Assembly: GCA_021443545.1 (NCBI GenBank)
Contig: JABUTU010000005.1
Location: forward strand, 51,205 to 115,204
Origin: Marinilabiliaceae bacterium
Lineage (GTDB): Bacteria; Bacteroidota; Bacteroidia; Bacteroidales; Marinilabiliaceae
Reading direction: 5' to 3'
Length of the DNA: 64,000 nt
Below the pieces are notes generated by a model that worked only from the letters and a program-made list of their open reading frames with translations, had not been told where the DNA came from and did no database searches. Shown here piece after piece: positions 1-46,154 of this stretch (the first letter of the stretch is position 1; every line of letters begins with the position of its first letter). Made by a program: the position numbers and the translations under genes.

Positions 1-3000
1 GTCAACGTATCATATACCTCTACACCCTGAGCGTTAAGACCACGATATACTGGCGTCTTACGTGTTATCTTCCAACGGAATACATTATCTCCCTTACCTA
101 AGTCAACATAAGTATGAGGATCCTTACTATCCTTGAAATTACCATTACCTGCTACTACTTCCCATTCGCCCCATTCCAGACCATCCGTTGTCTGTATGTA
201 GTTACCATCAAGTGTAGCATAATCAAAGCAGAGATCCTGCAGGTTGCCGGCATTAGGCACACTTGGGCGACCACTTGTGATGGTGACAAGATCCTCATCA
301 CGACAGCCCTTATACTCGGTAGTCCACTTAAGTATATTCTTACCTCTTGCAAGATTAGAAATCTTAGTATTCGGTGCCTTATTGTCAGCAAATAGACCCG
401 AAGATGTTGCTCCAACAACAGTCCACTGTCCCTTAGCAGCTCCTGGATCACTTGCTTCGAGAATGACATTATCTTCACATGTAATCTGATCGTCACCAGC
501 GTGAGCCTCCATTCTGTTGTATTCAACAACGACATCAGCTTGTGAGAGACATACAAATGAATTGTCATAAACACGTCGTATGGTCCATGTATACCTGTTA
601 CCATTCTTATTGAATGGAACATTACGTATCTGAGTCATCGGCTCTTGAGGTGATACGATATCACCACCACCCTCTGCTATAGACCATTCACCAGTCTCTA
701 CGAATTTACCTGTTGCGTCATAAGCAAGCTGACCAGCAGATATGATAGTCGCATTCGTGTCGCAAAGCTGCTGGAAGTCACTCAAGATTTGTGCCTCTGT
801 TGCAGCATTATTAACAACTACAACCGTATCAACTGATGGACACTCAAGATAGTTTACAGTCCAAAGCAGTACATTCTCACCCACTCCGAGGTTTCGAACC
901 ATGGTATGAGGATCGCTCTGATTGTCAAATGAGCCTCGTCCCGAGCCCGCTGCAATCGTCCATTGACCGACACCTGGCGAAGGATTATTAGCTGACAGAC
1001 GAACACTATCCGTACATTGAGGAGCCACGTCACCAGCCTCCGACTTAATGAATATATTCTCCAAAACAGTCTCATCCGACAATTCGCAATTTTCATTCTT
1101 AATAACCCATCGGAATCTATTCAGACCGAATGCCAAGCCTTTGACTGTTACTGTCTGGTTCTCTGTTCCATCATTTCTGTAGAGAGGCAGGCGATTGACG
1201 AGTTCAGGTTCACCATTTGCAACGTCAGCATTAGGGTTCACAAACTGACCGCCACCCTCAATAAGTTCCCAATAAGCCTCTGTGAAATACATTGGTTTAT
1301 TACCAGAGAGAATTGAGGTAGAACCGCAGACTTGAGTTGGTTTGTCTGCATCTGGTCCTGCATCAGGGATAGTCGGTGTGTTATTGATAATAATGACAGT
1401 ATCTTGCGATACGCACTCACCGCCCTTGTCGGTTGATATACGCCATATAAGAGCATTTTCGCCATGACCAAGGTCGTAAACATCATTATCGATAAACTTA
1501 CCTGAACCGCCACCAGCAATGAGCCATTCTCCAACACCATAAGTTGGTGAATTAGGATTAAGTCGATATGTACCATCGCACGTAGTCAGTACGCCACACG
1601 TATTGTCAACACCACAAGCCCAAGCCTTATCAGCCATATCATTCTTGACCGTTATCGTATCAGTGCTCTCGCAAGTACCGTTCGAAATCTTATAGACAAA
1701 CGTATTGTCACCCTGCATTAAATTGACAACCTTAGGACAACGTTGGTTACGAGGATCTACTCCTGCTGGAACATTTGTCTTATCGAAATCAGCACCACCT
1801 GATATCAGCAACCACGACACACCGCTCTTGACATTGATGTCGGTGCCTCCAACCGTATGTATCACGTAAGGACGCTCCTTAGGTTCATTACCCTGAAGAT
1901 CAAATTCATAATTACATATTGCACGGTCTCCGACTCTGTCTTCTCCTGCGTAGGCATCAGTAACTGACAGGTTCCATATCTGAACCGTATCAGATGTAAC
2001 ACCGCTATTGTAGGTAATTGACCATTCAAATGTATTGCGACCCTTCTGGAGACCTCGTACTGTTGTCTTAGGATCCAGCACATCATCGAACTGACCTGCA
2101 CCAGCTATGACTCTCCAGCGACCGATACCATTGTATGGGCCATTCGCTTTGAGAGTATAGGTATCAGAACAGAGATTATAGATATGGTCGCCAGCCTCAG
2201 CAGCACGAACATCTCCATACGTGATATTAACCTCATCCCAGATTTCACAACCATGATTAACAACTGTCCAACGGAATGTTGAAGTTCCATTAGAAAGATT
2301 CTTAACCACTGCATTCGGGTTATGAATTTCGGACTGATCGATATCACCACCACCAGCCATGAGATTCCATGTACCCTCACCATAACCAGGTTGTACAGCG
2401 ATAGCCTGCAAGCTTGTCGAATTTTGGGTTAACTGATCCTGGTCAGGACCTGCGATGTCATTTGTATCATCATTAACCATTATCGGTGCATTATTCGTTA
2501 CAATGACAGTATCACGTGACACACATTGACCATTGTTGATAGATATAGACCAAACAAGGTAGTTATCTCCCTTTCTCAAACCTCCGACACTTGTATGTGG
2601 GTCCTTAGGATCGGCAAAGGTAAATTCACCCTTACCCGTCACACCAGACCACTGTCCAGCCCAAATACCCTCAAGATTTGGTGCTACTGCCTTCATGGTA
2701 GTCTGAGATGTACATATCTGGAAGTCCTTACCAGCATCCACATCAATTGCATTGTTCTTGACAACCAAATCAGCAAATGACGAGCATCCTCCACTCTTAC
2801 TTGTTATCATCCATCGTAGTACATTCTCACCACGATCGAAATTACGAGCAATAGTATGAGGATTATACATATCGTCGAAGTCGGCATGTCCCTCCTTAAC
2901 TATCCAATGACCCACTTCATATTTTGTATTGATTGCATTGGCGTTTAGGATAGCCTCATAATCACAGACAGTAAGTGAAGATTCAACCTGTGCTATTGTC

Positions 3001-4110
3001 ACTTCGTTATTTGTTATCACGATATCGTCATAACTCATACAACCATCTTGGATAATAGTCCAACGAAGCACATTCTCGCCTCTTCCGAGATTCTTAACGT
3101 CTGTAGTTGCATACGAAGAGTTGGTGAATGTGGCATCTCCAAGCTTATCTCCATTTGCATCCCGGGCAACATCCCAATAACCAATACTATTAGCTGGTAT
3201 TCTTGTCGCATCAAGGCTATAGGTACCACTACATGTACTACCATCCTGACCTGCCCTTACATCAAGTTTTGCATTGAATACATTGACTGTAACCGACTTA
3301 GAGCATGAACCATTGATGATAGTATAACGGAAGATATTATCACCGAGAGTCAAATCATTCAGATACAATGTTCTTGCATTTGGATTAGCTATCGTACCAC
3401 CACCTGTGATGCGCTCCCACACTCCATACTGGTTGGCATGAATAGCTGTACGCCACTCACTTCCTTCAAGAGTAACCTCTGGACCACAGACAATATACTT
3501 GTATGCCATCACATTGTTATTCTCTTGCATAGTCATCATTGACTCATCAATGAGCACGTCTCCATTTCCGCCTGAGGCTTTAATGGTTGGTGTATCGGTC
3601 TCATTATTGACAAGTTCAATCAATGCAGAGCTCTCGCAACCATTCTTGTTAATTGTCCATGAGACGATAGTAGAGCCTTGGTCAAGGTTGAAGATATTTG
3701 TATACGAATTATTTGCGAACTCTATCTCACCTCTTCCGCTCTCAACTTTCCACAGACCCGTTGAGCCCTCAGGAACATTCGTTCCCTGAATATCAGTCTG
3801 ACCATCACAAATTAGAGGTGAAACCGAAACAGCGCTTACAACAAGTATGTTATTGTTGATTGTCACCTTCTTCTCAAGTGTACATCCCTTATTGGTTGTT
3901 ACCGTCCACAAGAATGTATTTTCACCCTGAGCTATGTCTGTCAATGTCGTGTTAGGAGAGGTTGGCTGAGCAATATCTGCACCACCATGAACTATAGTCC
4001 ATAAGCCTCGTGAACCAGCTGGCAGAGAAGCATTCATCCTTGTCGTGTTAGTACATAGATTCTGCAAATCGCCAGCTGTGAATGATGGAATCTCATTAAT
4101 CTCAATATCT
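1..4110 (-). repeat. At least 15 tandem ~80-90-aa repeats of a third family, continuing beyond the window edge
   Basis: The recurrent pattern is C......L.A......G.W....G.G.F.....P.T.V..L..G.N.F.W.I....C...D.V.I.NN. An example is ..CTDSVRLSANNPSPGVGQWTIAAGSGRGSFDNQSDPHTMVRNLGVGENVLLWTVNYLECPSVDTVVVVNN. Confidence 0.65.
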
Positions 4111-7100
4111 ATAGGCGCAGACCACTCGCCATAACCACAATCATTATGACCTCTTACTCTAATCTGACCTGTAAGATGAGATTGCGTCTCGTCAATAGCA
4201 ACCATCATAGAAGCTGTTCCTTCACCCGTCTCCACTACAAATCCTGCAGGAAGTTCCCACTCATAATTTGTCGCGTATTTTATGACTGGAACACTGATAA
4301 ATATCTCTTTATCACCCTGACAGTATGTTGATGGAGCTATGATAGCAGCTGGAGCCTCTGGCAATCTATTTACAGAGATAAGTCGCTCTATGTATTCGCT
4401 ACCATCACAGTCATTTACGGAACGAACTCGCATTATGCCACCAGCAAAGTCTTTAGCCACGTCAACAGCAATCTTCCTTGTGCCATTACCTGAGACAATC
4501 GACATGCCTGTTGGGAGTTCCCATTCGTAACCTGTAGCATGGTCAACAGCATCAACAGAGTATGTTACATTATGCTGACCCTGACATACCAACTCATAAC
4601 CCTTAATCATTGCTGGTTTATCAGCCAAAGGCAATACCGCTACAGTGACTGTTGCATCAACCCTGACTGGAACGCAGTTATTAGCATCTATAACGCTCTC
4701 GATGATATAGTCTGTTGTTTCAGTTGGAGACACCTCAACTGGCACTTTGTATATCACATTACCACTGGCATCAACATCCTGATATTGAACATCTATATTC
4801 GCTATCGTTCTCGTCATCTTGACACCCGCCTTATTGTAGTAATATGTAAGAGAATACGGAGCCTCACCACCACGAATAGTCATTATGATTTCAGTCTTCT
4901 GACCCTCACATATCGTTGTGCTTCCATTGGCTGTCACTTCTGGCAATGGCTTCGAAACAACAGTTGCCTCACCCTGCATATCACCGCTCTGAGCCACACA
5001 GTAGTTATCGCTGACAGATATAACCTTAAGCTTATAATCGCCTGGGGCCTCAGGAGTATAAGTAAATGTATATGGAGTCTCATCTGTCGTAATGTTATAG
5101 TTGAGAGAACCATCATTTACTACTACGTTCCAAGGAGCACCTGTCTCAGGAGTCAAATCTATCGTGACATCGGTTGATGTTCCATAGCATATTGTGCTAT
5201 TACCATATATGTATGATGTCGGACGAGGACGAACAGGAACAGCTACAGCATTTGTATTAAATGTACCACGTCCGCATGCTGGATCAGTCTCATATATTGC
5301 GACAATTGAATATAGAGCACTCTTCTCTGGTGTGAACTGATCGACAACCTGTGGTGAAACTGATACAGGAACAACCACTTCCTTATTAGGATCATTATCA
5401 CGGCGTATCACGACGTTAAGTGGACGCTTAGACAAATCCCAACCCGTCGTAACAAGTTTCAGTTCTGCATTCTGACCCTCACATATGTAATAGTCAGCAT
5501 CTGTAGAGACTCTGCTCAGTTCAATATGAGCCTCAGGCTGATGCATTACGATGGTATCAGTCAGCCAACAATCTGTATTATAGTCGAATTTACCATCAAC
5601 CTTACTGTCGTCTGTAACACGTATTGTATAAACACCAGCCTTCAGACCTGTGTAGACCTTAGAAGATGCCTGATCGTCATTGTTGTAGTTGTTAGGACCA
5701 GTAACCTCAATACGATATGAATTACCAGCACCAGGCACACCACCCTCAACCTTGAGTTCGAACGAACCTGTCAATTCATCGTAACAAGCAATATTGGTGC
5801 GTGACACCTTAGTCAACTTCAACTCATCAGGCTGAGTCAAGAGTATCTTATTGGTATTGTCATAACCATTGGTTGCAGCATTGTATGCCATATAATTAGC
5901 CTCTGCTCTATTGGCATCCACAACCTTGATTGTATACCAGCCCGGTGCGAGTTCTGTGACATTGAGTGACGACTTATTGTACTCAGCACCGACAACATAC
6001 CCACGATCGTTATAACACTCTATCGTGTATGGGATTGTACCACCCGTCACATCAATATCAATCTTACCATTATCGTCGCCATGACAAGGTATGACGTTTG
6101 TTGCTACGATATATGCATTCAACGGCTCGTTTGGCTGAGAGACATGAATAATGCCCGACTCAACCTCGCAGAGGTTCTCATCCTTAACAATCACCTTGTA
6201 AGAACCACAGGCAAGACCTGAGATATGTGTTCTATCCGTAGCAATCGAAGTTGTCATATCATTAATATCATACCACTCATAGTGATAATTACCATAACCG
6301 CCCGATACTGCAATGGTTATTTCACCTGTTGACTGACCATTAATTCTGACATTGACAACACTTCTGACTGAAACGCTGAGAGGTTCTGCAGGTTGCTGTA
6401 CCTCGATATCATTAGCCTCAACTATACAGCCATTCTGATCATTTACAACAAGACTATACTTACCAGCAAAGAGGTTTGATGCAACAGGACCATTATTGAA
6501 CTGTGCATTTGAACCTGCCCAATAGTAAGTGTAATTACCCGCTGCATCAGGCGTACCTCCCTCAACAGTCACTGTTATTTGACCAGTATTAAGACCATTA
6601 CACTTAACATCCTCAACTTCGATATTTGATATTCTCAATACCGAATTAGGAGCTGCGATGCTGTACTTACGCGTCACGACACATCCATAAACATCATCAG
6701 TTATGACAACTGTATAATCACCTTGCATCAAGTTCTTCTGAACAGGAGAACCTGGAACTATGTTCGCTGATGGACCAGTCCATGAGTACGAGTAGTTACC
6801 TGAACCACCGCTTACTGTCAACTCCAACTTGCCCGAAGCTGTGCCATAACACTTAACGTCCTCAATATTGGCATCTACAATCAGATTATATAGTCTTCCC
6901 AATGTTATTGTCTTCTCAACAACACAAGCATTTGGATTACCACTGATATCTACACGACTGTCTGTCACTGTCAGCTTGTATGTTCCAGCAGTAAGACCCG
7001 ACTGACTTGCTGATGTCTCGGTATAACCACGACCATCTGTAGACTCCCACTTATAGATGTATGGTTTGACACCACCAGTCATAATAATATCTATGCTACC

Positions 7101-10100
7101 ATCCATCTGGCCCTCACACGTCTCATCGTGAGGTATAGCTGTAATCTGTAGAGGAGTTGCAAACTCAATCGTCTTAGTTAGAGAACACTTGCTACGTCCA
7201 GCAGATGCATCAATTACAGTTACCTTGTAAAGACCATTGTGCATACTTGTCAGATTTGACACTGACGTCTGTCCTGCGAATCCATTCTGATCCACAGCCT
7301 CACCAGACCAGAGATAGGTCAGATTACCACCAAGACCCGTCGTAGCATCAGCCTTCCAGCCACCTTTGACATTTTCTATCTTAAGAGCTCCACCCATTCC
7401 ATTCTCACAATCTACATCCGAAACCATAACGAGGTCGAATGAGATGTCAACTGGCTCTTCTATAACAGCCGACTTAGTCATCTGACATCCATTGGCATCT
7501 GTCACAGTCAATGAATAGGTACCCTTGGCAAGATTCTCGAGAGTACGCGTGGTAGCTTGATTGCTCCAAAGATATGTATATGGAGCTGCACCACCGCTTA
7601 CGGTTGATGTTATACGTCCATCTGAATCGCCATAACAGGCGACGTCTGTCTTGTTAAGTTTGATATCAATAACATCAGGCTCAGCAACTTCGAATACTCT
7701 CGTAACTACACATGATGTCACTATATCCGTAACTGTAACCTGATATGTTCCAGCATCCAATGACGAGATGCCAGGTGTCGTAGCAGTAAAGGCATTAGGT
7801 CCTGTCCATGAATAGCTATACTTACCTGAGCCACCTGACACACCTATGTTAATTGAGCCATTATCACCTCCATTACATATTACATCGGTTACCGAGATTT
7901 CGCTCTCATCAAATGTCAACTCTATTGGCAATTCAATTGTCTTCGTCACAGAACAGTTATGTGAGTCTGTGAAGACAAATGTGTAGAGACCGCCTCGCGA
8001 CACATTGCTCAACGTATACTCCTTATAATCGCCATTGGCATCAGTTCCATCAACTGGAGCTCCATCAAATACAAGATTTGCATATGGACCGCTCGCCACA
8101 TATCGATAGATACCTGTGCCTCCATATACCTTAGCCTTGATTGTATGTTTGTAATGACAATCAACTGGTGTGTCGGTCAATACAACATCAATTGCTGACT
8201 TAGCATTCTCAACAACAAACTTCTCCTGAATTGAACATCCATTTGTATTGTCAGTAAGTGTCAGAGTATATGTACCTGGAGCCAAATCATACAACTCTGG
8301 AGCATTGTCATTAGCAGCTGTGATACCGACACCTGTCCACAAGTATCTCACATTATTAGAATCTGCAAATCCATCCAACTTGAGATTTGTGATAGCTCCA
8401 TCTGCAGCTCCCTCACATTGCTCATGAGTGATGTTTGCTGAAACATTTAACTTTGTCTTGTATACAAGATTGAAGACTCTTGAAACCGTACATGTTGACC
8501 TCTCTGAGTCAGACACGGTCACTCGGTACATTCCCTCTGCCAAAGATGTAGCATTCTGCAATGTCGAACCCTCTGCCAATGGTGCCCATGTCGTTCCGCC
8601 ATCCTGTGACGACTCCCACAAATAAGAGATTATTCCAAGATTACCTTTGACAGCTATAGTTATACTACCATCGTTTATTCCCAGACAACTTGGATTCTCA
8701 ACTGTTGATATGACATGGAGGTTAGACAATGTGAAGAACTCTGATACAACACACTTGTCAAGTGCTGTTGAATTCAGGTCAGTAACCGATATCTTATAAG
8801 AACCCTCTGGCAGATTTGTATAAGAAACCAGATTGTCAACATCACTCTTTGTCATAGCAGAGCGATTCTCTGCTCCAGTAAGTGTTACAGAATAACTATT
8901 GCCACTCTTATTGTAACCACCCTTTATCGAGAATGTAACCTCACCTGTATTACCCTCACACTCAATATTTGTTTTGAAATTCTCTATCGTAAGCTGATCT
9001 GGCTGAAGTATCTCCTGCGACAGCAATGTATGAATACAATTATTTGCATCTGTAACATCAGCCATATAAATTGTACCACCTACAAGATTCTTAAACGTAT
9101 GTGAACCTGTAGTCATTGCCTGTTCTTGAACAGATTGAGGATTTTTACTATCGTAGAAGTGTACATTATATGGACGAACACCACCCTTGACATATACCGT
9201 TATCTGTCCGTCAGGAGAACCATTACATGTCGTTACATCCTTTGGCGTCAAAGAAGCTATCAACTCCTCTGGCTCCTCGATTATATAATCAATTGGCTCA
9301 CTCTCACAATTGTTATCCTTGTCCTTGACAACAAGGGTATACTTACCAGCTACAAGGTCAATGAGTTTTGGCTTATCACTTCCTTGAAGTGGTGTTAAAG
9401 AACCATTCAAGTACCAATTATACTCTGGATTACTTGTTCCTGCCTCCTTAACTTCAATAGAACCCGAAGCGTCGCCATAGCACTTCACATCAACCTTCTC
9501 AATGAGGTCAACAGTAATTTGCGAATGTTCTGTAAGACTAATTTGTTTAGACTTAGTACATCCGTTGGCATCCGTCACAATAACTTGATAACTTCCTGTT
9601 GGTTTGCCAATGTATTCGTATGTTGCAACATACTTACTATCAACAGCATCGTAAGTTGCTTTAGCCTTGTGAAGACCATTAATGAATACTTCATAATAGT
9701 AGTCCCCAACAACAATACCCTCAGTAGGATCTGCCACAGTTGCATTTAACGGTTCTCCACCGCTTACGTCAACCTTTATTGCATTATTATTGACAAATGC
9801 ACAACTTCTCTGTGACTGTGTCACCGTTATCTCAAGTGGATTCAAAGGTTGGAGAATCTCAACTCTTTCCTTGAAACCTACGCCATTATGATCTGTCACT
9901 TCAATGGTATATACTCCGGCAACAATATTATCAATCAGATAAATACCAGGTTCCGTAACAGTCATATGAGTGCGACCATTAACCGTAATGACATAAGGGC
10001 CTACACCATTGTAGATACGGACATTGATTGCACCTGAAGGCTCTCCATAACAGAGGACATCAATAGACTTATCGATATTTCCATCCAAAGCGCCATTGTC

Positions 10101-22100: not shown

Positions 22101-25100
22101 AGAAGCATCTAACGCAGTAGGTAATAGTATATCATTCAGATAATACTGATTAGGACGTCCAGAAGATCTGTCTATAGTAGTTGCCTTGTGAAATCCGTTA
22201 TAACCATCATATATGAAGGTCATCTCAGACAACTCTGTTGCGGAGAAACCATTTATACTAATAAGAGACGTTACCTTATTGCCATCACCTGCACACTTCT
22301 CAACACTCGTCGTTACATCATCAAAGGTCACCTCTCTTTGATATTCAAGAAGCATCTCTGCCGAAAGTTCACAAGTAACATTATTAGTTAGAAATTCTGT
22401 TCTTCCAGAATCCTTGACACGTACTTGATACTTACCAGGTGTCAAACCATCAATTCGACTCGATGTATTATTAGCTCCAGTATATGCTGTCCAAGTCGAT
22501 GAAGCATCGTCCCATATATCCCACGCATAAGACAAAGAACCAACGGCATTCTCAGTACTTACCTCTAATGCTCCCTTGTAACCATCAGGGCATTCAGGCT
22601 GTGTTGGAATAAGACTAACATTAAACTGTGTCAGGACAATCGGTCCAAACGTAATATGACATGTATTAGCGTCAGTTGCTCCTGCCTCGACTGAGTTATA
22701 GTCATAAACCTCAAGCATATAGCTTCCAGCAAATAGCGAGTTGACTGAAATCTTTGTCTCGTTGTTTACATCAAACGACTCTTCAACTCCACTTAACAAT
22801 GAACTGGTAGCTCCATCTTTATATAGATACCAATGGTAATTTACTTTGCCCGACTTAATCGCGCCACCTGTCAGAACGGCATCTATAGCACCTGTTCCAT
22901 CAGCACAAAGCATTGAATTAGCTTCTCCAACCTTTACCATATTGCTGACATCCTCAACAACCACATTGTTTATTGTCTGCGAAACGCCCTTTGCATCCTT
23001 AACGGTTATACTATATGTGCCTGCGGCAAGACCAGTTATCTGGTATGTTGCATTTTGGCCATTTACAACATCTGGCTCAATTGGATCAGTATTCTGCTTG
23101 GTACTTCCCAACCATACATCATAATTAGGAGTACCATGTATTGTCAACGTTATTATACCATCCTGACCCCCTGCGCAAGGATTATTTGTTACAGTCGGGT
23201 TGACTTGCAATGAGTTGCCATAGACTTTGAATTTCTCATCCAACCAACAATCCTTACCATCTACTACGTTTATCCAGAACCAGTCATACTCTCCATTTAC
23301 AGTTAAACCAGCAAGAGGATTCACATTCTCTACACCAAATTGCGTGGTTCCCTTAGATAGTTCTGTACCATCATACCATTTCCAGGTATAGATATTTCCT
23401 GACGCATTTGCAATCACATTTCCTCCCTCAATAGGATTAATCTCAATGGCTGCAACATGTTGCCCATTATCAGGTGTTATATCTTTCGCAACAACGATAA
23501 GGTCTTTTGGCTGCTTTATCTCAACCTCTTGTGTGATTGCGCGACAAGCAGCCTGGTCTGTACCAGGATATACATATATCACATAGTTACCTGCATCACC
23601 ACTCTGCAACGTAAACTCTGCCTCTGATATGCCAGCAGTTGCTGTGACTGTCTGCGACTGCTTTAGTGTCTCAACAGTATTAACTCCTACCATCGTCAGC
23701 TTAAAGAGTTTATAAATATGTGTAGCCGAACCTCCATATGAAGCCTGTGCCTTAATTTTCGCTGTAGACTTAACAGTCGTTCCACTCTCGTAGGTATTGT
23801 CGGCACAAAGGAAATCTGCTGTCTCTATAATCTGAGCTTTGATGACAGGCTCTACACTTACTGGCTTATATCCACGACACTCATATGTAATAGGATTACC
23901 ATCTGCAGTATATACTCCGTCATTTACCCAGGAAACGAGGTAATGAACGTAATATGGAGTCGCTCCTGATATCGCGCTTAAATCGACACCAAAATAATGG
24001 TCGACATCTGCATTTACATCTGCCCAGTCTGCAACCATAGAGGCAGTCGTGATGTCTGTTCCATCCCAAACAGATACCTTATAGTTAGCTACCTGACTAT
24101 GACCATTGTCACTTGGTGCATTCGTAGTCCAACTGCCATCGATATTTGTTCTGATTGTCGCTGTACAAGCATCAAAGACTGGCTCTGCAAGAGAGACGGC
24201 ATCTGGCTCATAAATAGTGTATGTCTCACTGGTCATACAACCTGTTGTCAGTGGAGATGCAACATAGTTGTCTGTTGCCCACAGGATATACTCTCCTGGC
24301 TCAAGATTTTCAAACTTAGGAATATTCTGCCAATCATACTTGATAGTCGTTCCATCTGACGCAGTAAGCTTATACCAGTAGTTGGTCAATGTGCCCTGCT
24401 GTCCTACATTGCCTCCCTTCATTCGGGTCACTTGCAACTGACCATCATCTGCACCTTGACAACTTATATCTGTAACGGCTGTACGAACAATCTCTATTGG
24501 GAATGATGGTTCCGTTACAGTGAAATTAGTAGTGTACAAACAACCTCTGTAATCCCCATAGCGCACAAATATTTCATAATCTCCAGCTGGCAGACCTTCA
24601 ATGGTAAACTCATTTGTCTCAAGTATCTGTCCGTCGGGTGCAATAATAGAACCTACCGCAGCTCCTGCATAATACAACTGTACTTGTTGCGCCGCAACAC
24701 TTAATGTATAATCTAATGGTGACGGATATACACTTAGCAAACTGGTCCAGCCAGATGCATCCTCCTCGATAGAAACTCCTGCTCTATCGATAATGAAATA
24801 GAGATTTGGCACAAAACCATTGTAATCTGTCTTTCCAATAGAGTGAGATGCGAGAGCTTGCAAATTAGTTATACGGATTGTTGCCTTACCGTCAGCAGCA
24901 CCCTTACATGTCGCTGGAGTCTGTGTATATGTGAATGTTATATCAGGAAGTCTTGTTATCTCAAACTCAACATTATTATAACATGTCGTATTATCCATTG
25001 AGATAACCTTAACGCTATATTTGCCTGGATCCAAACCACTTATTGTTGTGCCAGACTGTCCAGGTATTACAGCACCGCTTGCGTATGACCATACTACATC

Positions 25101-28100
25101 ATAACCAGTTGCAGGCGCTCCTGACGTGAACTGTATGCTCGCCGAGCCCTTTGTTGCTGTTCCACCGCCAGCATCACAAGAATACTCCTCTGTTACATCA
25201 ACCTTAAAGTCGATTGGCTCAATACTCTTCAAATCCTGACGCTGACTAATATAGTAACAACCTGTATTCATGTCTTGAATACGAACAATATAGCTACCAT
25301 CAGGAACAGACGTATATATATGTCTGTCTGTTCCGTCACCAACTGTCGAGGCTTGTACCGTTGTTATGTTCAAGTCAGATGCTCCAACCTGATACCACTG
25401 ATATGCATAATCTCCAGTAAAATTCGGTGATGGTATTTGGACTCCATCTTTGTAGATATTCGTAATTGTCAAAATTCCATTGTTCTGACCTGTACAAGTG
25501 TCTTCTATCTTAATATCAACAGAATAAACAGGATGTGTCAGAGGTACTATCTTCATGATATCTGTCGAACAGTCTATCGTATGGCTCGTGAGCGATGCAG
25601 GAATAGTTCTATTGTACAATTCCGTTGCTCCATCCTTCTGCAGTACATAGACATTCTGCCCGTCCTCAGCTACGTAATAGACGACAGGAAGACTTGATTT
25701 AACAACCCATCCATCTGTTGGAATTGCTGTCTGCATTATCTTATGATTTGCATTATCATCAACAGTATAGTTTATAACGGCGTCTGTGACGCTCGCACCT
25801 GTTGCTAATACAAGATCATAATTTACATTACCATCTGCAGCATGTGCAATCTTAAATGAATAGTAATCATACTTATCTAAGTCGAGATTCTGCTTTGCGA
25901 ATTTCAATTTTTCTGTGAGAAGGTCGAAACCTGCCATTGGATTGTTCACCCAGTTATCTTGCAATGTACCATTACCATCAGGATACTTACTGCAATAGTA
26001 TATCGTCTCATCTTGTAGCACATTGTGCTTTGGTGCTACATAGTATTGCTTCATAACCGACTGAGAACAGCCTCCATACGAATCGTCTGACTTAAAGATA
26101 TAGTTGATGCTATATACTCCAGGCGACAGGATGCCAGGGTTGAAGTAGAATGTACCGAGTCTGTCATTGAGTGTTCCATCAACAGGAACATTGCTTACAA
26201 CCTCATCTGCTTTATAGAGTACATTACCAAATGCATCAAGTATATCGTTCTCAGGAACGAACTCAAGACCAAAATTTCGTCCCGTTGATGAATCCTGAAG
26301 AACTACCTCAAACCAACCCATTCCAGGAACCTTCGTTGTCGAAGTCAAGTCAGGATGACTTGTCTCCAACTTATAGCTACCATTCATAGCAGTACAGAAC
26401 GCGCGTGGCTCTTCTGTTGCTCCTGATATATCCTTTACGTTGAACTGCGCATTAGCAAAGTCGTTGATATTAAAACGCTTAGTTACTCGATACGAGCAAT
26501 CACCGGCCTTATAGTCGAAATTAACACTCAACTGCGCGCGGTCGACTTTCTTGATTCTTGCCTTATACTCTTTCAAATCAAGACATGCTCCGACTCCGTC
26601 ATTTGGATTATATGTTACAATTGAACCATCATTTAGAGTGATAGAACCATCATAGTCATCATCCCACACGAGCAATCCATCATATCCAGACTCACCCATA
26701 GAGAATGCACCACCAGTTATGGCAGTTCCTTTTGCATGGAACAAGACGTAATTGTTGCTCTCATACTGTGTGTAACCACCACTTGATGTCTCCCTCTTCG
26801 TGGTACAAACCTCCTCAGCAAGGTCTATTGTTACTGATGAACCGTCCTCTATATGTATTCGTCTCGCAAATGGATCGCCACAACCAACATAGTACAATAC
26901 ACGATAATCTCCAGGCGCAAGAGCTGAAGTATAAACCGCATAATCACTTATATAGTAACCACTTGCTGGAGGGAAATTATTCTTATTAATTTTTATTAAT
27001 CCATCCTGACCATCTACAGGCACCTGCGGAATAGGTCTATCTCCATTTGGATTGGCTGGATCCTTAATATCCTGAATATAGAACTCTCCAGGAACGTTGC
27101 CATCAACAATGGTCTTAGGCCAGAAATATATCTTATTAGATTTATCCTTTACATCAAGATAATTTGTACTCCAACACAATGTTAGCGCTGGCGTCACATT
27201 GCTTATAAGCTCATGTGTATTAACATCATACCATGTATTTCCAGGATCATCATTAGCATCACTTGGCATTGTTCCATCGTTTGTAGTCGGGAACTTGCCG
27301 TCAGCTAACGTCTTATCGTTCCATGAATCCTCACCATAGATGATAGAGAACGGATCTGCACGATTCGTTAGGTATACCTCCCACGATTTGGTTGAAACAC
27401 AATTATCTCTATCTGCCACAAATGTCCACTCAAAGAGATAGTGACCATCTGTATTAGCCTCGTAAGTCCATTCAAATGAACATGCTCCATAATCAGTCCA
27501 ATCCCAGCCAATATTATCTGTTAGATCTTTTGACGTGTCGTCAGAATCTGCATTTCCTATCAAGCCTATTCCCTGTCCATTATAATTGACATACGGAATA
27601 GCTGTTCTATTAGGGTCATTCAATACTATTGTCTTAGGATAACCAACAGCGAGAGGATCTATTTTAGGATCTCCTATCTGCTTTGTACCAGCTATAACCT
27701 CAGGGTCTGAAGCTACATAATAACCTTTTAACTTATTAATAACTACCGTACTTACACCCGACACTCCCTCGTAATTATAATCGAAAACTTTGTATGTCAC
27801 ACTCTCTTTCTCAGGAGCCTGAGTATGGTCAATATGAGTATCAGTCGCTACCAACGAACGACTTGGATAATTCAAGAGTACACGTACGGTTGTCTCCGAC
27901 GACATAGTACAATAGCTCTTATTCATATTATGAGCAAGATCTCGGAGTATCTTGACAGTTCTCGAGTAGTCGGCTCGACACTGATCATTCTGGTTGTTTC
28001 TACACTCCGCTCCATTGTCAACATGCAGATTTATTGATGTAGTATTGTCATTACCTACAATTGCAGGAACAAATACGTAATGGTCTACAGCATTATCATC

Positions 28101-31100
28101 CGTTGTCTGCGCTCCCGTAGCATCAACTGCATACACTCCAACACCCGTAAATTTATAATAATAATCATTTACATTCGGCTTTGTATATGTAGTAAGCTGG
28201 AATGGTGTTTTATATGAGAATGCATTGTGATTATTGAGATCTGTCTGTGTCAACTTCGATGCTGCTACGATATCTCCATTAGTGAATGTGTAGTACGAAG
28301 ACTCAGTGATAGCGAACTCCTCAGATGAACCAGCAACATTATCATACGCATACTGTGCGATGACTGTAACAGGCATACCATCTGGACAGGTTACAGAGAA
28401 GTCGTGCGTTGTTCCCCAGTCAGTTGTCACTGTTACCTTATTTGCAGCAGAGGTTACAAAGAAACTCTGTTTGCGTGCGATAACTCCCGCAAAGCCGGTT
28501 GGCACTGATACTATATTGAAGTTCCTCTTTACTACATTTGGCTTAACATAATCAACCAAATTACCTGAAGTTGGAGAATTATACGTGAGCTTAGGATCAC
28601 CATTGTCGTAGTACTGATATCTGTATACATATGGTATCAATTCATACTCTTTAGTGTCTGTCGGGCATAGGAAGTCCTCAGAGAATCCTCCTTGGAATCC
28701 TGATGTAAGACCCTTGAACTCAAAGAATATCTCATCAGCTACCGGCTGGAAGAGTTTCGACTCTTTCTTTACCTCATATACGCATCCCGTCAATCCATCC
28801 TTATACTCATAGGTCCATTCAACCGTCTTTCCATTTGCATTCCAACGATGATGGAGGAGTGGACTAAATGTATATACTGATGTTCTACCATCATCAACAG
28901 GGTCATCTTCATACATAACTCCCTCTACCAAAAGCTTACCATAACCGCCCTCCGTCCAGTTATCAGGCACACCTCGTATGGTAATCAAATCATTTGTACA
29001 ATAGCAATCATCTGCCTCGATACTGTACTCAGAAATATTTCTCTTCTTATTGACAGTGAAATAACCATCAACCCAGAATACTTCCGGACACATAACCGAC
29101 TTAAACCTAACCTGATAGGTCGTACTGTTTGCATTAGCATGGGTAAGTGCAGGAACAAATCCCGGACAATTTGCATCTATATATGCTTGTGTTATTCCAG
29201 TAGCTGTAAAATCACGAGGATCAAATATCGTAGAACCATTCTGCATTGTCGTTATCTCGCACAAGTCATTCTGGTTTGCTCCTACTATATAATACTTACC
29301 ATCGCCCGGACTGAAAAACTCGCGAAGCAGGACTGGATCACTATCTTCACATATTGACCATGCTGGATCGTCCTGATCTATCTTAAGTTCAGTTGAATTC
29401 GGTCGTATGTTCAACGTGTACTCTGTTACAGTTGAAGAACATGACTCCGCACTCTGCGAGTCCTTCGCAACAACATAATAATTATATTGATAATTACCAT
29501 TCGCATCATAAAACAATGGATTTCTCCTATTCTCGGGAATACGTGCAGAGAATGTGTAATTAGGTCCCTTAGCAAGAAGGTCCGCCTGAAGTAGATTGTC
29601 AGATGAATACCAGTAATACTCAAGGTTTGTCGTAGCTCCCGCAGATGATGCCGTCAGTGTAATCTCCTCACCCTCACATACTATAGATGAGAGTCCCTCG
29701 CTCGACTGAGTGATTGTTACTGTCGGAGCTGTCGGAGAGGACTCAATGCTGAACACCAACTCATCCGAAGAACAATCTGGAACTGCTGGTGCATCCGTAA
29801 TAACCGAAATAGTTACATCACCTGTTGTCAGATTAAAATCATTTGCAACAAAATCAAATGTAAATGTGTAATTATTTGAATGTGTAATACGAGGATCAGT
29901 ACTATCAACGTATGTCGCTACACCATTGGATACAATCTGCAGACGGAATGAATAGAGCGCATGCTTGTCTACCTGATATCGTATTGTTACAGGGTAATGC
30001 TGATTACCTTTATCTGTAACACAGAAATGTCCCGGTATGCTCGAACTCAACTCTGGTTCCTTAACCAACTTTATCACCTTTATATCGTTGGACTCATTTG
30101 ACTGACATCCTTGCGTGTTCTGTCCTATTACCTTATATGTCCCTGCTGGAATTCCAGCTCCATCATCCTGCGTAAATGTAACTATACTTCCATTACCACT
30201 CTTAATAGACCTTGTGTACTTAACAGTATTATCAGCAGTATTCTGGAGTATATATGTAGTATTCGGATCACAGCCAGTCACAGTAACCTCTGCTCCCTCC
30301 TTACTTCCATTGGCACAATAATAGAATGGCACCGACTGAACAACTGGCGTCGAAGGTTTTGCCTCTACCAAAATATTACCAGCAATATCCGAAGAACATA
30401 CATTATTCTGTGATGGATATGCCATTGCATAGTAGGTGACATCCTCCTTCTCTGAGGAAACAATACCGAATGACAAAGTGCCTGTTCCATTTCCCTTCAA
30501 GATTCCAAGGGTATTAATCACCTCTGTTCCTGTCAGCGGATCATTTGTCTTTTTGTATACGACATAGTTGACATCCGGATCAGTTACCGCAGTACCACCC
30601 GCTGTTTGTTCAATAGAGATGGTTGTTGTACACTCATTGATATCACCTACGAGTTCCAACCCTTGAGTGTCAGGCTGCTTGACTATCTCTATATTGTTTC
30701 CACTCTGAACTGGTGTTTCACAACCATCTACACTGACTGCTGAGATCGTATAAGTACCAGTCTCTGACACAAGGAATGGATAAGTTATTCCGGTCTGCTT
30801 AACGCCATCTTTCCACAAGGTATATGTAGCGTTAGGATCATAATTCTTAACGCTCAAGGTATAACCCGAACCACTGGCGCACTGCGTTCCAGTCTGAGAG
30901 AGCGTTACATCGGGCGCAACAGCGTCTCCAATAGTAAAATTACCAGTAACAGTCTCACATGAAACACTTGATGTTATGGTATATGTTCCTGGGTCACTAA
31001 CTCCATCAAAGTAATAAGGCACTGAAGAACCCAACAACAAGGATATCGTTTGCAATGGCGTAGTAACACCATTATAGGTTCGATACAATGTATAATTAAC

Positions 31101-34100
31101 TCCAGCTGTAAGTCCATCAAGTCCGAATGTATAGTCAACTCCAGCACAATAATTTGTAACAACTGCTCCCTCAACTATTCTCTTGTCCACCATGTTGTAA
31201 GAACCACCTGCTGTGATGGTCAACGTTCCGCTTATCTTTTTATCACCTCCACAACCCTCTCGCTGTGCCTTAACATAGTAGACTCCCGCTGGTAAACCTG
31301 CAATGCTTATCTCACATGGCCCATTATCTGACAAAGCCTTTGCAAACAGGCCTGTTGATGTGTCGTCAGAATTCTTATATATTGTATAGGTCACATTCTT
31401 CTCAGCGTTAGCCACATGCAGACTCTTACCTGCCAATTCACTTGTACAGTAGCTCAAGGAGCCGATTGTAGTAAAGTCGCTATAACCAACAACTCTAAAA
31501 GTGCCACTTAATGGGGTTGAAGAACCAGCACCACACTGTGAGAGATATGCCGTTACCCTATATAATCCAGGCTCTGACACATAGAATCGCATGGTTGCAC
31601 CCTCCGTTGTTCCCAAAACAGAGCTCATTGTAGAGCCTCCAGAAACCGTCGCAAATGGATATGTTGCCCATGTTGTTCCATTATCTGTCGACCGCTCAAC
31701 CTGATATACTGCTCCTACTTGAGAACCTGACAATTCCATATATGTAGTAGGGTCGTTAGCACAACCTACATTATTATCTGTAACTCTGTATGTTGTGTTC
31801 AATGTAGAATTCACGACAGTAAAAGTCTTATCACCAACCTCAGACGGTGTGCCTCCACAAGCAGCCCATACCGAGTAAACACCTGCTGCTGAGTACGTTT
31901 TATTAAACGAATTACCTGTCGGAATCTTCTCAAGCATCACTCCATCTTTATATATGAAGTAATCAATAGATGTACTCAGACCACTTAACGATATCGTCTG
32001 CGCTGCACACGTTCCACCAATCACATTGACAGCAACAGTCGAAACCGAAGAACTTACGGTATAATTCAATCCCAAATCAAACGGAGTACATGTTCCAGTA
32101 TAACCACTTGGAACTGCGACTACACTATAGTTTCCAGCAACAGCGCTGGCAATATTAAACACCAACGCTCCCCCTGTTCCTGCAACGGGTCCATCGACTT
32201 TGACTCCCGAACGATAGACATAATAGTCTACTCCCGTCTCCGAACCATTCAATGTGAATGATATAGGATTTCCTGCACAACCGCCAGAAGTCGCACTCAA
32301 CGAAAATCCAGTAGTACGCGGTATAACAACTTCGTTACTCTGTGCTACAATAGTTCCTCCACACTTGGCAACTACATCATATGTACCCGCTGTCGTCGCT
32401 GTCGCAAAGGTATATGTCGTTGCCAAAGCTGTGCCATTTGCCACCTCGGCACCATTCTTGCGCAGGTAATAGATAACTCCACTCTCGGCATTAGCAACTT
32501 TGATATTGTATGCACTTCCTGTTGTACATGATGCTTCTATAATTATTCCTGCCGAAGGAGTCGGAGTCACTGTAAATACGCCCGACTCTGCCGTACAAGC
32601 CCCTGCTGATGCAACAATCTTATATTTGCCCGCACTATTAATCACAAATGAGAATGTCTGCGAAGCATCCGTCACAACACCTGTCGATTGTATGCTGACT
32701 CCATCCTTATACAAATCGTACTTTGCTCCAGGCTGCAATGTATTCGTCATTGTGATACTCTGTCCCTTAAACTCGCTCAAGCACTTTGTAGTGCCCGCTT
32801 GAGCAAATGTCGGTGCTGAGACCTGGACCACAGTAACCTGACCGAGTGTCGTCTTACATGTTGCTCCAGCTAAAGCTCCTGATACAGTAAAAGTACCTGA
32901 TGCATTTACATGAATTGTCACGTCTGCGCCTGTACCCGCAACACTCTGACCATTATCAAGCGAATATGTCACTCCCGCCTGAGACGACGGTATTATGACA
33001 TCACCACATGTTGTAGCACTGACAAATGGCGTAACAGGCGTGGGACCAACCTCAAATGTTCCTATGTCACATGACGTTGCTGTTCCATTGTAATTCAGTC
33101 TGACTGAGTATGTTCCTGCCTTCGACATAGCAGCAGGCAACGTTCCAAGCGTCGATCCAGATGCCGTTCCAAGATTTGCATACAAAGCACCATTCTGATA
33201 GAGACTAAAGGTCACTCCATTAGCCACATTTGCATTCGAAGCAAGCTTTATCTCATTATCTATATTAGCACATCCTACCGTCGTCGACAAGGTATTAGTC
33301 TTCATATAAAGTGCCGAAGACTGTTGCCCTGCCACGCCCATCTGTATGGTATAACCAGCAGCTGTGCCATATATGGTATATATTCCAGGATCCGTAAATG
33401 TCCACGCAAGAGCCGAGCCATTACCCACCTTCGACTGTCCTGCGCCCATCGAAACTCCATTCTTATAGAGCTCATACACAACACCCGTCTCACTCGTGTT
33501 AAGAGATATGGTTCCGCTCGCGCCCATACACACATAGCTACCAACCACATTCAGGACTGACGGAACAGGTGGCAACTGAGCCGAAGGATTAAGAGCAACT
33601 GTTGTTATTGTAGATGCCTGTGGAACCTGAAAATTACCACCACTTAAAACCTGTGATTTATATGGCGTTTGGGAATAGCTATCGGTTGCATCTGCCAAAC
33701 CTTTCAGATAAGCAAAGCCTAAATTTCCACTAAATTTGTTTTTAAATGAAGTTACAAAAGCATCATAGTCGGTAGCATTATCGGCAATCTGTATCTGGAA
33801 ATAGTCAGTATAAGCCCCTGTCGTTGAAAGTTTTATATCATACGTACCAGGCATATACTGAGTACTCGTATTATTGCCGTTATTCATATTCATAGGAAGT
33901 CCCGAATATGCTCCTATCTCGGTCGTTGTAGATCCTGTAGGAGGGTATGTCACAGCTGCTCCTGATGTCTTATCCTCCAACTTGACCATTAGATAGAAAT
34001 TACCATCAGTGCCTTTAAGCCACTGCATGTCCTTTATGACTGTCTCTGTCGATGCCTGTCCAAAGAGTACAAACGAGTTAACAAAAACAGCAATAGCAAG

Positions 34101-34178
34101 TAGTCCGATAGTTCGTAGACTAACTCTTGCAAAGCTACGGAAAGTAGCACTTAATATCTTCTCAAATCGACTTCTCAT
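1..34178 (-). CDS. Giant secreted/cell-surface repeat protein (SprB-repeat / Ig-like adhesin type). The 5' end is complete and the 3' end runs off the left edge; at least 11,392 codons are in the window.
   Basis: I translated the reverse complement by hand from ATG 34178 (in-frame alternative ATGs at 34205 and 34211). It starts [42 protein letters not shown]. I met no in-frame stop (plus-strand tta/cta/tca at positions = 0 mod 3) down to nt 3, and I re-checked 1..2100 and spots near 10.0 and 20.0 kb codon by codon. All 12 minus-strand ORFs the track lists inside 1..34 kb share one other frame (end coordinate = 1 mod 3), and none lies in this frame. That fits an ORF finder that only reports frames closed by a stop inside the window. 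The translation is highly structured, with repeated modules and conserved Cys/Gly/Trp positions. Confidence 0.9.
   Translation of the reverse strand, partial: [11392 protein letters not shown]
4110..4625 (-). repeat. Two PKD-like modules with a Y-E-W-E-L-P signature
   Basis: The two modules read [66 protein letters not shown] and [68 protein letters not shown]. They resemble the Bacteroidetes PKD-like (PKD_6-type) module as I recall it. Confidence 0.55.
4625..5540 (-). repeat. Three ~95-aa Ig-like modules of a different type (C-x-G-Q/T start, no SprB motif)
   Basis: The modules begin [16 protein letters not shown].., [17 protein letters not shown].. and [27 protein letters not shown]... Each ends with a Cys-containing strand (..DPACGRG.., ..DNYCVAQ.., ..ANNCVPV..). 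Confidence 0.55.
5540..25520 (-). repeat. Array of about 69 SprB-type repeat units (~85-100 aa each, ~20 kb)
   Basis: Each unit opens with C-x-G-x-x-(D/N)-G-x-(I/V)-x-(V/I), followed by GG..PY.Y.W and closing with ..G.Y.V.V.D..GC. Examples are [58 protein letters not shown] and [29 protein letters not shown]. This matches my memory of the SprB repeat (Pfam PF13573) of the Flavobacterium johnsoniae gliding adhesin. The unit count is a manual tally of the Cys-Gly-Asp/Asn-Gly motif and is approximate. Confidence 0.75.
25520..29400 (-). other. Non-repetitive core of the giant protein, about 1,290 aa, no family recognised by eye
   Basis: The translation between the two repeat arrays has no obvious periodicity. 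It is rich in W/Y/D/N and scattered Cys, for example ...[46 protein letters not shown]... and ...[29 protein letters not shown].... Boundaries are approximate. Confidence 0.6.
29400..33560 (-). repeat. About 15 tandem ~80-aa Ig-like modules (N-terminal stalk of the giant protein)
   Basis: The recurring pattern is C-x-G..(I/L)..L..S..GV.Y.LY.NG......G.G..L.F....AG.Y.V.A....C. Examples are [50 protein letters not shown] and [10 protein letters not shown]. Boundaries are approximate (+/-100 nt). Confidence 0.7.
34053..34178 (-). other. Predicted N-terminal signal peptide of the giant protein
   Basis: A basic N-region (MRSRFEK..R..R..R) is followed by a hydrophobic core [17 protein letters not shown] and a small-residue site GQA/ST. 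The cleavage position is a guess. Confidence 0.55.
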
Positions 34179-34212
34179 ACCTGTCGAATATTTAATTTCT
34201 TGCATAATCATC

Positions 34213-35349
34213 TTAGCTCTTAATCAACATATATCTGCTACCAGGTAGTCCCTTTACAATTCCTATAAATTCCATCTCCAGTAACGTAGCACTCAATTCA
34301 CTGACTCTGACATTACACTCTCGTCCAATCTCATCAGCTGTCTTCTCTCCACTTAGTAAAACATCGTATATCTTACGCTGTTCCTCCGTCAACGACTCCG
34401 CCGTCGGAAAAAGTTCTCCCTGAATTGCTTCATGCGAACTCTCACTGACCCAATTCATCACTTCATCAATATCACTCGCGGAAGTGACGAGTCTGGCCTT
34501 CTGTTGCCTGATAAGGGTATTACACCCTCTTGACATCTCCTGTAATGGCGAACCAGGCATCGCCAATACGACTCTGTTATACTCAATCGCCCTTGCTGTA
34601 GTTATCAATGATCCCCCCTTTTCACCACTCTCAACAACTAACGTAGCATCTGCCATTCCCGCTACAATACGATTGCGACTGATGAAGTTAGGCGCCTCGG
34701 GCTCAATTCCCCTATAATACTCCGTCAGCATAGCCCCTCCTCCCATTACCATCTGCTTCGCAATCTCACGGTGCTGACTCGGATATACCTTGTCCAATCC
34801 ATGAGCAACAACCCCAACCGTCTTAACTCCACACTCCAATGCTGCCTTATGAGCAACAACATCAATCCCATACGCTAAACCACTCACTACAAGCATATCA
34901 GGATGACACTTCGATAACTCTCCAATAACTTCACGACACCACTCCCTTCCATATGCCGTAGGTCGACGTGTTCCAATAACACTCAAGACTATTCTGCTAT
35001 TTAAATCCGCACTTCCCTTAACATACAACACCATCGGCGCATCATCACACATTCTCAATCTGGTCGGATATCGACTGTCAGTCAAAAACAATGCCTCCAC
35101 ATCAAATTTCTCCATCCACTCCACCTCAGACTCAGCCTTCAACAATACCTCTTCTCTCTGTCGAATTATCTCCTTTGCCGTTACTTCTGAAACCGAATCG
35201 ATTTTAATCAAATCAGCCAAATCCATCTCCATCACACCGACAAAACTACCCGCTGCAGCATAGAGATTTCTCCCTATCTTAGGTCCAACTCCCTTGATCA
35301 TTCCAAGAGCTATAGCGTTCAGTATTTCTGCCGTCATAATATAAATCAT
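34213..35349 (-). CDS. dprA: DNA-processing protein DprA (Smf)
   Basis: 378-aa ORF with DprA core motifs: SGLAYGIDVVAHKAAL, GVVAHGLDKVYP, NFISRNRIVAGMADATLVVESGEKGGSLITA and AMPGSP. Confidence 0.9.
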   Translation of the reverse strand: MIYIMTAEILNAIALGMIKGVGPKIGRNLYAAAGSFVGVMEMDLADLIKIDSVSEVTAKEIIRQREEVLLKAESEVEWMEKFDVEALFLTDSRYPTRLRMCDDAPMVLYVKGSADLNSRIVLSVIGTRRPTAYGREWCREVIGELSKCHPDMLVVSGLAYGIDVVAHKAALECGVKTVGVVAHGLDKVYPSQHREIAKQMVMGGGAMLTEYYRGIEPEAPNFISRNRIVAGMADATLVVESGEKGGSLITTARAIEYNRVVLAMPGSPLQEMSRGCNTLIRQQKARLVTSASDIDEVMNWVSESSHEAIQGELFPTAESLTEEQRKIYDVLLSGEKTADEIGRECNVRVSELSATLLEMEFIGIVKGLPGSRYMLIKS

Positions 35350-38908: not shown

Positions 38909-39024
38909 TAATTCTGAATTTTTCACCGCATTGTACTAAAATTCATAAAATCCTGAAAATTAGTTTCAAAACACTTGAGCACCTCATTATTTATTAGTAC
39001 ATTTGTGCTAATAAAAGCGTGGTT

Positions 39025-39645: not shown

Positions 39646-39649
39646 ACAA

Positions 39650-40756: not shown

Positions 40757-40836
40757 CTAAGGGGTGCATCAATACGACTTGATGCACCCCTTACTCTTTA
40801 TTCCCTTTCTGTTGTAGCAAATTAAATCCACTTAAG
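40757..40836. repeat. Direct repeat copy B: authentic glgP 3' end plus terminator
   Basis: See copy A. Here the last 15 nt are the real glgP C-terminus (..PLLKWI-stop, stop at 40822..40824). Confidence 0.8.
40758..40793 (-). terminator. Rho-independent terminator of glgP
   Basis: 15-bp stem taaggggtgcatcaa / ttgatgcacccctta with a 6-nt loop. On the minus strand it is followed by TAGTTTATTCTGTTTTG (T-rich). Confidence 0.7.
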
Positions 40837-43365: not shown

Positions 43366-43410
43366 TTTCCGATTAAGGGATTCTTATCTTACGTTGTATT
43401 GTTGCTTGTT

Positions 43411-44808: not shown

Positions 44809-44834
44809 CTTCTTATATTTTTCTTATTAATGAA

Positions 44835-46127: not shown

Positions 46128-46154
46128 ATGCCTGTTTTTGTAGTTTTTACTCTT

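Follow-up and report, generated by a model that had tools for sequence, protein, structure and literature searches.

A predicted SprB-family surface protein of 12,021 amino acids in an uncultured herbivore-gut Bacteroidales bacterium

In the 64,000-nucleotide stretch of contig JABUTU010000005.1 from a Marinilabiliaceae bacterium (assembly GCA_021443545.1, positions 51,205–115,204 of the forward strand; hereafter the window, in whose coordinates features are given), more than half of the length is taken up by a single gene on the minus strand. The product of this gene is predicted from its sequence, with a probability of about 80%, to be a complete and functional fibre adhesin of the SprB family that the T9SS (type IX secretion system) of an uncultured Bacteroidales bacterium of the herbivore gut exports to the cell surface.

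The giant gene and its modular product

The reverse complement of positions 3..34178, translated with table 11, yields 11,392 codons and zero stops. The stop-free run itself extends over 11,407 codons, with 15 open codons preceding the ATG at 34178; for comparison, open runs in the other frames of the window reach at most 1,149 codons. An initial annotation of the window had reported this open frame, its share of more than half of the window, and its absence from the accompanying list of open reading frames (ORFs), and all three observations hold. The frame is missing from the list because ORFs that run off the ends of the window are not included, as had been proposed, and the 12 ORFs with 60 or more amino acids on the minus strand of 1..34178 indeed share a single other frame (end coordinate 1 mod 3 in 12 of 12, compared with 2 mod 3 for the giant frame).

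The window contains the first 95% of the gene (positions 1..34211, minus strand, codons 1–11,403 of 12,021), which is intact and complete on its source contig (k119_19467 of ENA assembly ERZ27313630, 192,941 bp). Beyond window position 1, the frame continues for 618 codons and ends in a stop (k119_19467, 73,378–75,232). The window is 100% identical to the two retrieved loci of this contig, L006 and L007, wherever they overlap, and the gene stitched from these two loci, which occupies contig positions 73,378–109,443, comprises 36,066 nucleotides with a single, terminal stop. The full product has 12,021 amino acids, a mass of 1,298 kDa (1.30 MDa), an isoelectric point of 4.5 and 231 cysteines; the expectation that it would exceed 11,392 residues is borne out, with only 618 residues lying past the window. 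The gene had already been called in public data, with the start at the ATG at 34211, which lies 33 nucleotides (11 codons) upstream of the ATG at 34178 and one nucleotide after the stop codon of dprA. The frame is open from ATG 34178, as first described, whereas the public call places the start upstream of it; translation may begin at 34211, 34205 or 34178, among which the sequence does not choose, and the predicted signal peptide core is common to all three. Residues of the architecture described in this section are counted from ATG 34178, so that 11 must be added for the called start, and all features of the protein are encoded on the minus strand.

The protein opens with a putative Sec signal peptide (residues 1–42, MRSRFEKILSATFRSFARVSLRTIGLLAIAVFVNSFVLFGQA; 34053..34178) in which a basic n-region precedes a hydrophobic core of 15–20 residues (LLAIAVFVNSFVLFG, Kyte–Doolittle mean >2.2). 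This assignment, made by inspection and hydropathy only, is consistent with the signal peptide noted initially, and a distant orthologue at locus L017 opens with an equivalent one. The segment that follows, from residue ~43 to ~159 (33702..34052) or ~190, is an orphan: in searches of 5.8 billion proteins and of 1.84 billion representatives, nothing matches it except a fragment of the protein itself, and matches begin at residue ~190. Its similarity to the corresponding segment of the L017 orthologue is weak and not significant (E = 0.21). This tip is presumed to be the distal end of the fibre.

Next come ~11 divergent immunoglobulin (Ig)-like modules (‘family A’, residues ~160–1570; 29469..33701), which were delineated by iteration of an internal hidden Markov model (HMM) and have no Pfam match. 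These modules are distantly related to the SprB-type modules, with which they merge on HMM iteration, and a further 309 large proteins with multiple repeats contain the family A repeat at ≤44% identity. The modules are followed by a non-repetitive zone of 1,280 amino acids (residues ~1570–2850; 25629..29468) that shows no Pfam, PDB or internal similarity and, when used as a query in a scan of Joint Genome Institute (JGI) metagenomes, retrieved no relative. In a tblastn comparison with L017, residues 189–3335, which span this zone, are collinear at 34–38% identity, which shows that the zone belongs to the conserved portion of the protein.

The main body consists of 65–66 tandem SprB-type modules (residues 2892–9836; 4671..25505), identified with PF13573 and a phased internal HMM and modelled with AlphaFold 2 (AF2), with a median period of 91 amino acids and the consensus ..C.G...G.I...V.GG...Y.Y.W.G......L..G.Y.V.VTD..GC... 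The Pfam scan yielded 26 significant stretches of the 37-residue SprB repeat PF13573 (2 + 11 + 13 by chunk, with whole-chunk E values down to 5e-114), in agreement with the placement next to SprB in the initial annotation, together with PKD_6 and K319L_PKD. As proteins, the near-full-length aligned modules share only 23–41% identity with the reference copy. Glycine, tyrosine and aspartate are nearly invariant, whereas cysteine, glycine and tryptophan occupy majority-consensus positions; the earlier statement on conserved Cys/Gly/Trp positions therefore stands for the consensus and not for invariance. The AF2 model of one module, built from a multiple sequence alignment of 34 internal copies, is an all-beta sandwich with a mean predicted local distance difference test score (pLDDT) of 91.5, and its best Foldseek matches are Ig-like decoration domains of phages, PKD domains, Ig domains of intimin and fragment-6 of the stem of the grappling-hook protein GhpA (template modelling score ~0.6).

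Between the SprB-type array and the C-terminal part lies a PKD_6 region (PF19408, E = 9e-30, two stretches; 4395..4622), and from residue 10056 to 11392 (3..4013) the window encodes the first 15 of 19 K319L-like PKD modules (‘family C’; PF22352, E = 8e-16, and internal HMM). These modules continue past the window and make up the predicted cell-proximal base of ~1,700 amino acids. A search of four 2,500-residue chunks of the protein against NCBIfam returned nothing useful. Altogether, the window encodes ~95 modules (66 SprB-type, 15 K319L/PKD-like, ~11 divergent and 2–3 PKD_6), and the whole protein has ~101 modules plus the 1,280-residue zone without detectable repeats. The original count of more than 100 Ig-like modules is slightly generous for the window and correct for the complete protein. 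Given the confident beta-sandwich model and the matches to Ig and PKD domains, ‘about 100 Ig-like modules’ is a fair description, and the Ig-like beta-sandwich body proposed at the outset is well founded.

The secretion signal, the SprF partner and the affinities of the giant protein

The last 800 residues consist of K319L-like PKD modules, two PKD domains (PKD_4, PF18911, E = 4e-31) and, at the very C-terminus, the type IX secretion signal domain CHU_C (PF13585; 41.6 bits compared with a cutoff of 27, E = 1.4e-10). Extension of the contig to the left thus reached both a stop and the type B sorting domain that had been suggested for the C-terminus. A gene of the PorP/SprF family begins 35 nucleotides downstream (L007:10001–11098; PF11751, E = 1.2e-50; TIGR03519, 196.8 bits compared with a cutoff of 90.55). 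The SprF protein on the contig of the giant gene (P0141, NCBI MCF0189741.1), found by cluster look-up, is labelled as derived from a metagenome-assembled genome (MAG) of a Marinilabiliaceae bacterium, and an SprF gene directly follows the giant-type gene in all relatives examined. Proteins with type B C-terminal domains (CTDs) are exported by the T9SS, and cognate PorP-like proteins keep them on the cell surface (PMC9143113, PMC12635249). The giant combines the two hallmarks of such cargo, a type B CTD and an adjacent gene for a cognate PorP-like outer-membrane protein.

In Flavobacterium johnsoniae, a Cys-X-Cys motif in the tail of SprF forms a disulfide with GldK and is needed for gliding but not for export (PMC12635249). 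The SprF encoded next to the giant differs in this respect: Cys-X-Cys is absent anywhere in the protein, and none of the 121 SprF homologues, including those of the cultured Thermophagus and of Marinilabiliaceae JC017, has it in the last 45 residues. Instead, the tail contains a single cysteine, C336, within the motif KPVPC[ST]EP[IL][ML]GY followed by a basic tail, and the cysteine in this motif is conserved in essentially all full-length homologues. The single-cysteine SprF proteins may represent a distinct class. A sequence search of this SprF against the PDB gave no match.

The gene after SprF encodes an OmpH/Skp-like protein (L007:11210–11782; PF03938, E = 1e-22), and genes of this family adjoin or lie near the giant/SprF pair in several lineages (L011/L012:11251–11832, L008:6787–7353, L014:12501–13127). 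The OmpH/Skp-like protein may be dedicated, as a periplasmic chaperone, to the giant cargo or to the SprF barrel.

SprB of F. johnsoniae, a gliding adhesin of 6,497 amino acids and ~200 nm, is carried by SprF (PMC12635249). By domain set and gene order, the giant resembles this protein in its Sec signal peptide, its array of PF13573 Ig-like modules, its type B CTD, the PorP/SprF gene directly downstream and the predicted long surface filament. The differences are substantial as well. The giant is ~1.85 times longer (12,021 compared with 6,497 amino acids), its ~2,850 N-terminal residues, including the 1,280-residue non-repetitive zone, have no SprB signature, it has a 1,700-residue base of 19 K319L-like PKD modules, the gene upstream is dprA rather than sprC/sprD, and its host is an anaerobic, uncultured member of the gut Bacteroidales.

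Several observations weigh against the reading as an SprB-family fibre adhesin. The best match among solved structures is GhpA, not SprB, and no SprB chain is found among the PDB matches. The TIGR04131 model of the type B sorting domain reaches 34.0 bits and misses its cutoff of 35 by 1 bit. The N-terminal ~2,850 amino acids contain no recognised domain and no Pfam SprB signature, and the single-sequence AF2 model of residues 43–600 is unusable (pLDDT 42.6). Finally, no gld genes, including gldJ, gldB/D/H and gldK/L/M/N of the gliding machinery, and no sprC or sprD were detected in the window or the retrieved flanks (~110 kb on one contig, scanned without models specific for sprC/sprD). In the F. 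johnsoniae operon, sprC and sprD lie upstream of sprB; they are not a defining feature and may, in the bacterium considered here, lie elsewhere.

The match to GhpA points to an alternative, in our judgment an improbable one, under which the giant would be a grappling hook, copies of which associate side by side in a rigid, hollow rod anchored in the outer membrane, with a hooked tip that snares cells, rather than a single flexible filament. GhpA of Aureispira sp. CCB-QB1 (5,898 amino acids) forms heptameric rods of 240 ± 4 nm, and its gene, like that of the giant, precedes a PorP homologue, ghpB, which is followed by a PorE homologue, ghpC (bioRxiv 10.1101/2024.01.29.577165). Rigidity of the heptamer and co-occurrence with T6SS(iv) are further characteristics of the GhpA hook. 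This T9SS substrate (PDB 9flp) is the only large solved protein that matches the giant, with E = 1.6e-74 over the last 3,321 residues. Residues 9832–10110 of the giant align with the stem repeats of GhpA, 10488–10741 with residues 4840–5092, 11412–11757 with 5101–5727 and 11921–12001 with 5809–5882. In terms of domains, the significant similarity covers the PKD_6 region, which corresponds to the 250-residue stem repeats, the K319L-like base, which corresponds to GhpA 4840–5727, and the CTD, which corresponds to GhpA 5809–5882. Both proteins also have a signal peptide, Ig-like domains in succession and a sorting domain at the C-terminus, and the 231 cysteines of the giant could allow inter-domain disulfides as in GhpA.

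However, the GhpA authors themselves call GhpA and SprB similar, so that a match of this kind is expected under either reading and does not discriminate between them. Other features set the giant apart from GhpA. The N-terminal 2,900 residues of the giant show no similarity to the hook (GhpA residues 26–1402), although GhpA is present at full length in the PDB library searched; a PDB sequence search with residues 1–2900 gave no match at E ≤ 0.01, and a remote structural similarity of this region to the hook may nonetheless exist. The profile of the SprB-type modules that make up the main body of the giant matches GhpA weakly (51.6 bits over 12 stretches), whereas PF13573 matches the giant 26 times. 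After SprF, the place of the PorE/OmpA-like gene for a GhpC homologue is taken by the OmpH gene, and the giant is twice as long as GhpA. Because of the missing N-terminal match, the weak match of the SprB modules to GhpA and the lack of a PorE-like gene at the locus, the giant is filed with SprB.

A homologue of ordinary size shows where the additional length of this SprB-like protein resides. Thermophagus sp. OGC60D27, a cultured member of the Marinilabiliales (GCA_052400625.1, locus L014), encodes an SprB-like protein of 5,930 amino acids, of which residues 2616–5930 are collinear with residues 8504–12021 of the giant in a single alignment at 36% identity. The two proteins share the 19 K319L-like modules, the two PKD domains, CHU_C, a downstream SprF with a single-cysteine tail and a nearby OmpH gene. 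N-terminal of the shared base, the Thermophagus protein has ~2,600 residues, compared with ~8,500 in the giant. Because the two are collinear from there on, the extra ~5,900 amino acids of the giant are located before residue ~8,500, within the N-terminal region and the expanded array of SprB modules.

Surface proteins of very large size are well known from bacteria (the ‘huge proteins’ survey, PMC11573180), and Clostridia and Omnitrophota have genes for proteins of 10,000–85,000 amino acids (bioRxiv 10.1101/2023.11.21.568195). The giant, rightly ranked among the very large bacterial proteins at the outset, yet with documented precedents at such lengths, resembles these in being a repetitive, secreted, beta-rich surface protein of more than 10,000 amino acids encoded by a single ORF in an uncultured bacterium. 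It differs in phylum, in domain families and in export route, being a type B cargo of the T9SS composed of SprB- and PKD-type modules. The giant-gene preprint (bioRxiv 10.1101/2023.11.21.568195) mentions Bacteroid* once and neither SprB nor the T9SS, and a literature search found no paper on giant SprB-like proteins of such size in rumen or gut Bacteroidales.

Conservation of the gene and its surroundings

Intact orthologues of similar length, each followed by SprF, are encoded in four independent assemblies from other samples: 11,925 amino acids in ENA ERZ27256983, 12,060 in NCBI GCA_024401335.1 (horse faeces), 12,046 in Logan SRR17543911 and 13,585 in ENA ERZ15610563 (NODE_9_length_251224, locus L013, 99243–120415). 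These lengths come from gene-call tables that were reached via SprF. The 13,585-residue homologue is larger than the giant by ~1,500 amino acids, and the SprF after it is 63% identical to that of a relative from horse faeces (L001). In addition, the five relatives among GTDB representative MAGs, which come from the faeces of horses and the rumen of sheep, all have the PKD-PKD-CHU_C tail and SprF, and in each the frame is open over all 10 kb fetched upstream. The SprF locus of another homologue (P0024, locus L008) is cut by the end of its contig and gives no information on size, and the SprF of Tenuifilum is paired with an unrelated cargo of 2,375 amino acids.

Over ~3,100–3,300 aligned codons, the proportions of synonymous and nonsynonymous differences are 0.71–0.86 (pS; synonymous sites saturated) and 0.22–0.36 (pN), respectively, and the ratio of nonsynonymous to synonymous rates (dN/dS) is 0.10–0.17 where computable. 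These values bear on the very improbable alternative that the gene is a relic, decaying or silent, which is held open by recent history and from which no protein is made. The one observation in its favour is the distant orthologue at L017 (L017:6103–15859), which is called in four pieces and shows a 10-N gap (11369–11378), a frameshift around position 13,000 and, past its first 165 codons, an in-frame stop; these breaks may be assembly errors, given that the scaffold is gapped and contains a run of Ns, or real decay. A run of 12,021 stop-free codons at ~42% GC is not sustainable without selection, and the low dN/dS at saturated synonymous sites, the conservation of length and architecture in several lineages and the intact SprF partner all speak for a maintained gene.

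It is hardly credible that the 34-kb frame is an assembly artefact in which a shorter adhesin gene became chimeric or was expanded or collapsed through its repeats: the gene is modular and comes from a short-read metagenome (the name k119 suggests MEGAHIT), but its modules are only 23–41% identical as proteins and its best direct-repeat family in DNA is 40 nucleotides at 65–78% identity with none longer, which leaves no ground for k-mer confusion and an assembler nothing to collapse or expand, four independent assemblies hold orthologues of 11,925–13,585 amino acids, and relatives are collinear over >3,000 residues of the tail and >3,100 of the head. With no long repeats, independent intact orthologues and dN/dS of ~0.1–0.17, the gene is neither a misassembly nor a pseudogene.

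The giant and its orthologues of 11,925–13,585 residues are absent from both the word-indexed library of 5.8 billion proteins and the library of 1.84 billion representatives, where only fragments such as P0001, P0020 and P0183 are found. Proteins of this size appear to be systematically missing from these libraries.

Upstream of the giant gene lie dprA (34213..35349, minus strand; PF02481, E = 1e-69; TIGR00732, 210 bits, above the cutoff), an M23 peptidase gene, an AIR-synthase-related gene and ruvA. The order of dprA and the giant gene is kept in L017 (L017:4862–6600), a relative that is only ~34% identical, and dprA is probably co-transcribed with the giant gene. There is no obvious link between DNA processing and adhesion, and dprA is not functionally part of the adhesin. 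The remaining genes of the window are housekeeping genes, namely those for the M23 peptidase and the AIR-synthase-related protein, ruvA, a glycogen-metabolism cluster, ileS, lspA, kdtA and dxr.

Elsewhere in the window, all on the minus strand, 38923–40684 includes a gene for an ATP-binding cassette (ABC) protein of 370 amino acids with a full ATPase domain but no more of the ABC_membrane profile than its last ~115 positions, which overlaps a downstream ORF of 220 amino acids without a Pfam match; an exporter gene may have been truncated or split here. The compact glycogen/alpha-glucan cluster (40822–48080) encodes a DUF3417-type glucan phosphorylase, a GH57 protein, a GT4/GT5 glycogen-synthase-like protein and an amylo-alpha-1,6-glucosidase. 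The ORFs at 49506–50096 and 51836–53193 (196, 321 and 130 amino acids) have no Pfam match. At 59945–63271, a protein of 1,108 amino acids combines Reg_prop beta-propeller repeats and Y_Y_Y with a C-terminal SpoIIE/PP2C phosphatase domain, not the usual histidine-kinase output.

Export, anchoring and possible roles of the predicted fibre

The likely path of the giant to the surface follows from what is established about the T9SS (PMC9143113, PMC12635249). The protein would cross the inner membrane via Sec, its type B CTD would be recognised by the T9SS translocon, and it would then be handed over to the dedicated SprF-family carrier, with the C-terminal base anchored in the outer membrane and the fast-evolving N-terminal tip forming the far, binding end of the fibre. 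The single invariant cysteine of the SprF tail plausibly forms a disulfide with the GldK/PorK track; by analogy with F. johnsoniae, its presence is compatible with such a tether and no proof of it. The fibre would project roughly 0.35–0.5 micrometres from the cell (~370 nm when scaled from SprB and ~490 nm when scaled from GhpA), which makes the several hundred nanometres suggested in the initial annotation a reasonable estimate.

As to the use of such a fibre, a static, long-reach adhesin that binds plant particles or other cells, or some other use, is somewhat favoured, and active propulsion along a gliding track is possible but somewhat doubtful. A more specific scenario can be proposed only tentatively and is, as a whole, rather unlikely: a clade of herbivore-gut Bacteroidales would have doubled an SprB-type adhesin to 12,000–13,600 amino acids, with a half-micrometre fibre, a lineage-specific, fast-evolving tip and a single-cysteine SprF that provides a different GldK/PorK tether suited to anaerobic conditions, for long-reach attachment to plant fibre, protists or bacteria instead of classical gliding. 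To our knowledge, this size range is far above that of any T9SS cargo studied so far (SprB, 6,497 amino acids).

The giant is an unusually large addition to the known SprB-like kind of protein and not a new kind of system. Its size appears to be functional given that it is kept under purifying selection in several lineages of gut Bacteroidales, and genes of this kind are easily overlooked because neither window-based ORF tracks nor two large protein libraries include them or their products. The cultured Thermophagus homologue, of ordinary size and with a similar base and a single-cysteine SprF tail, is a place where the roles of that cysteine and of the base could be tested. The main points of note are this tail and the extreme nature of the substrate: a cargo of 1.3 MDa with ~100 domains, twice the size of SprB, would provide a practical upper bound for the load of the T9SS.

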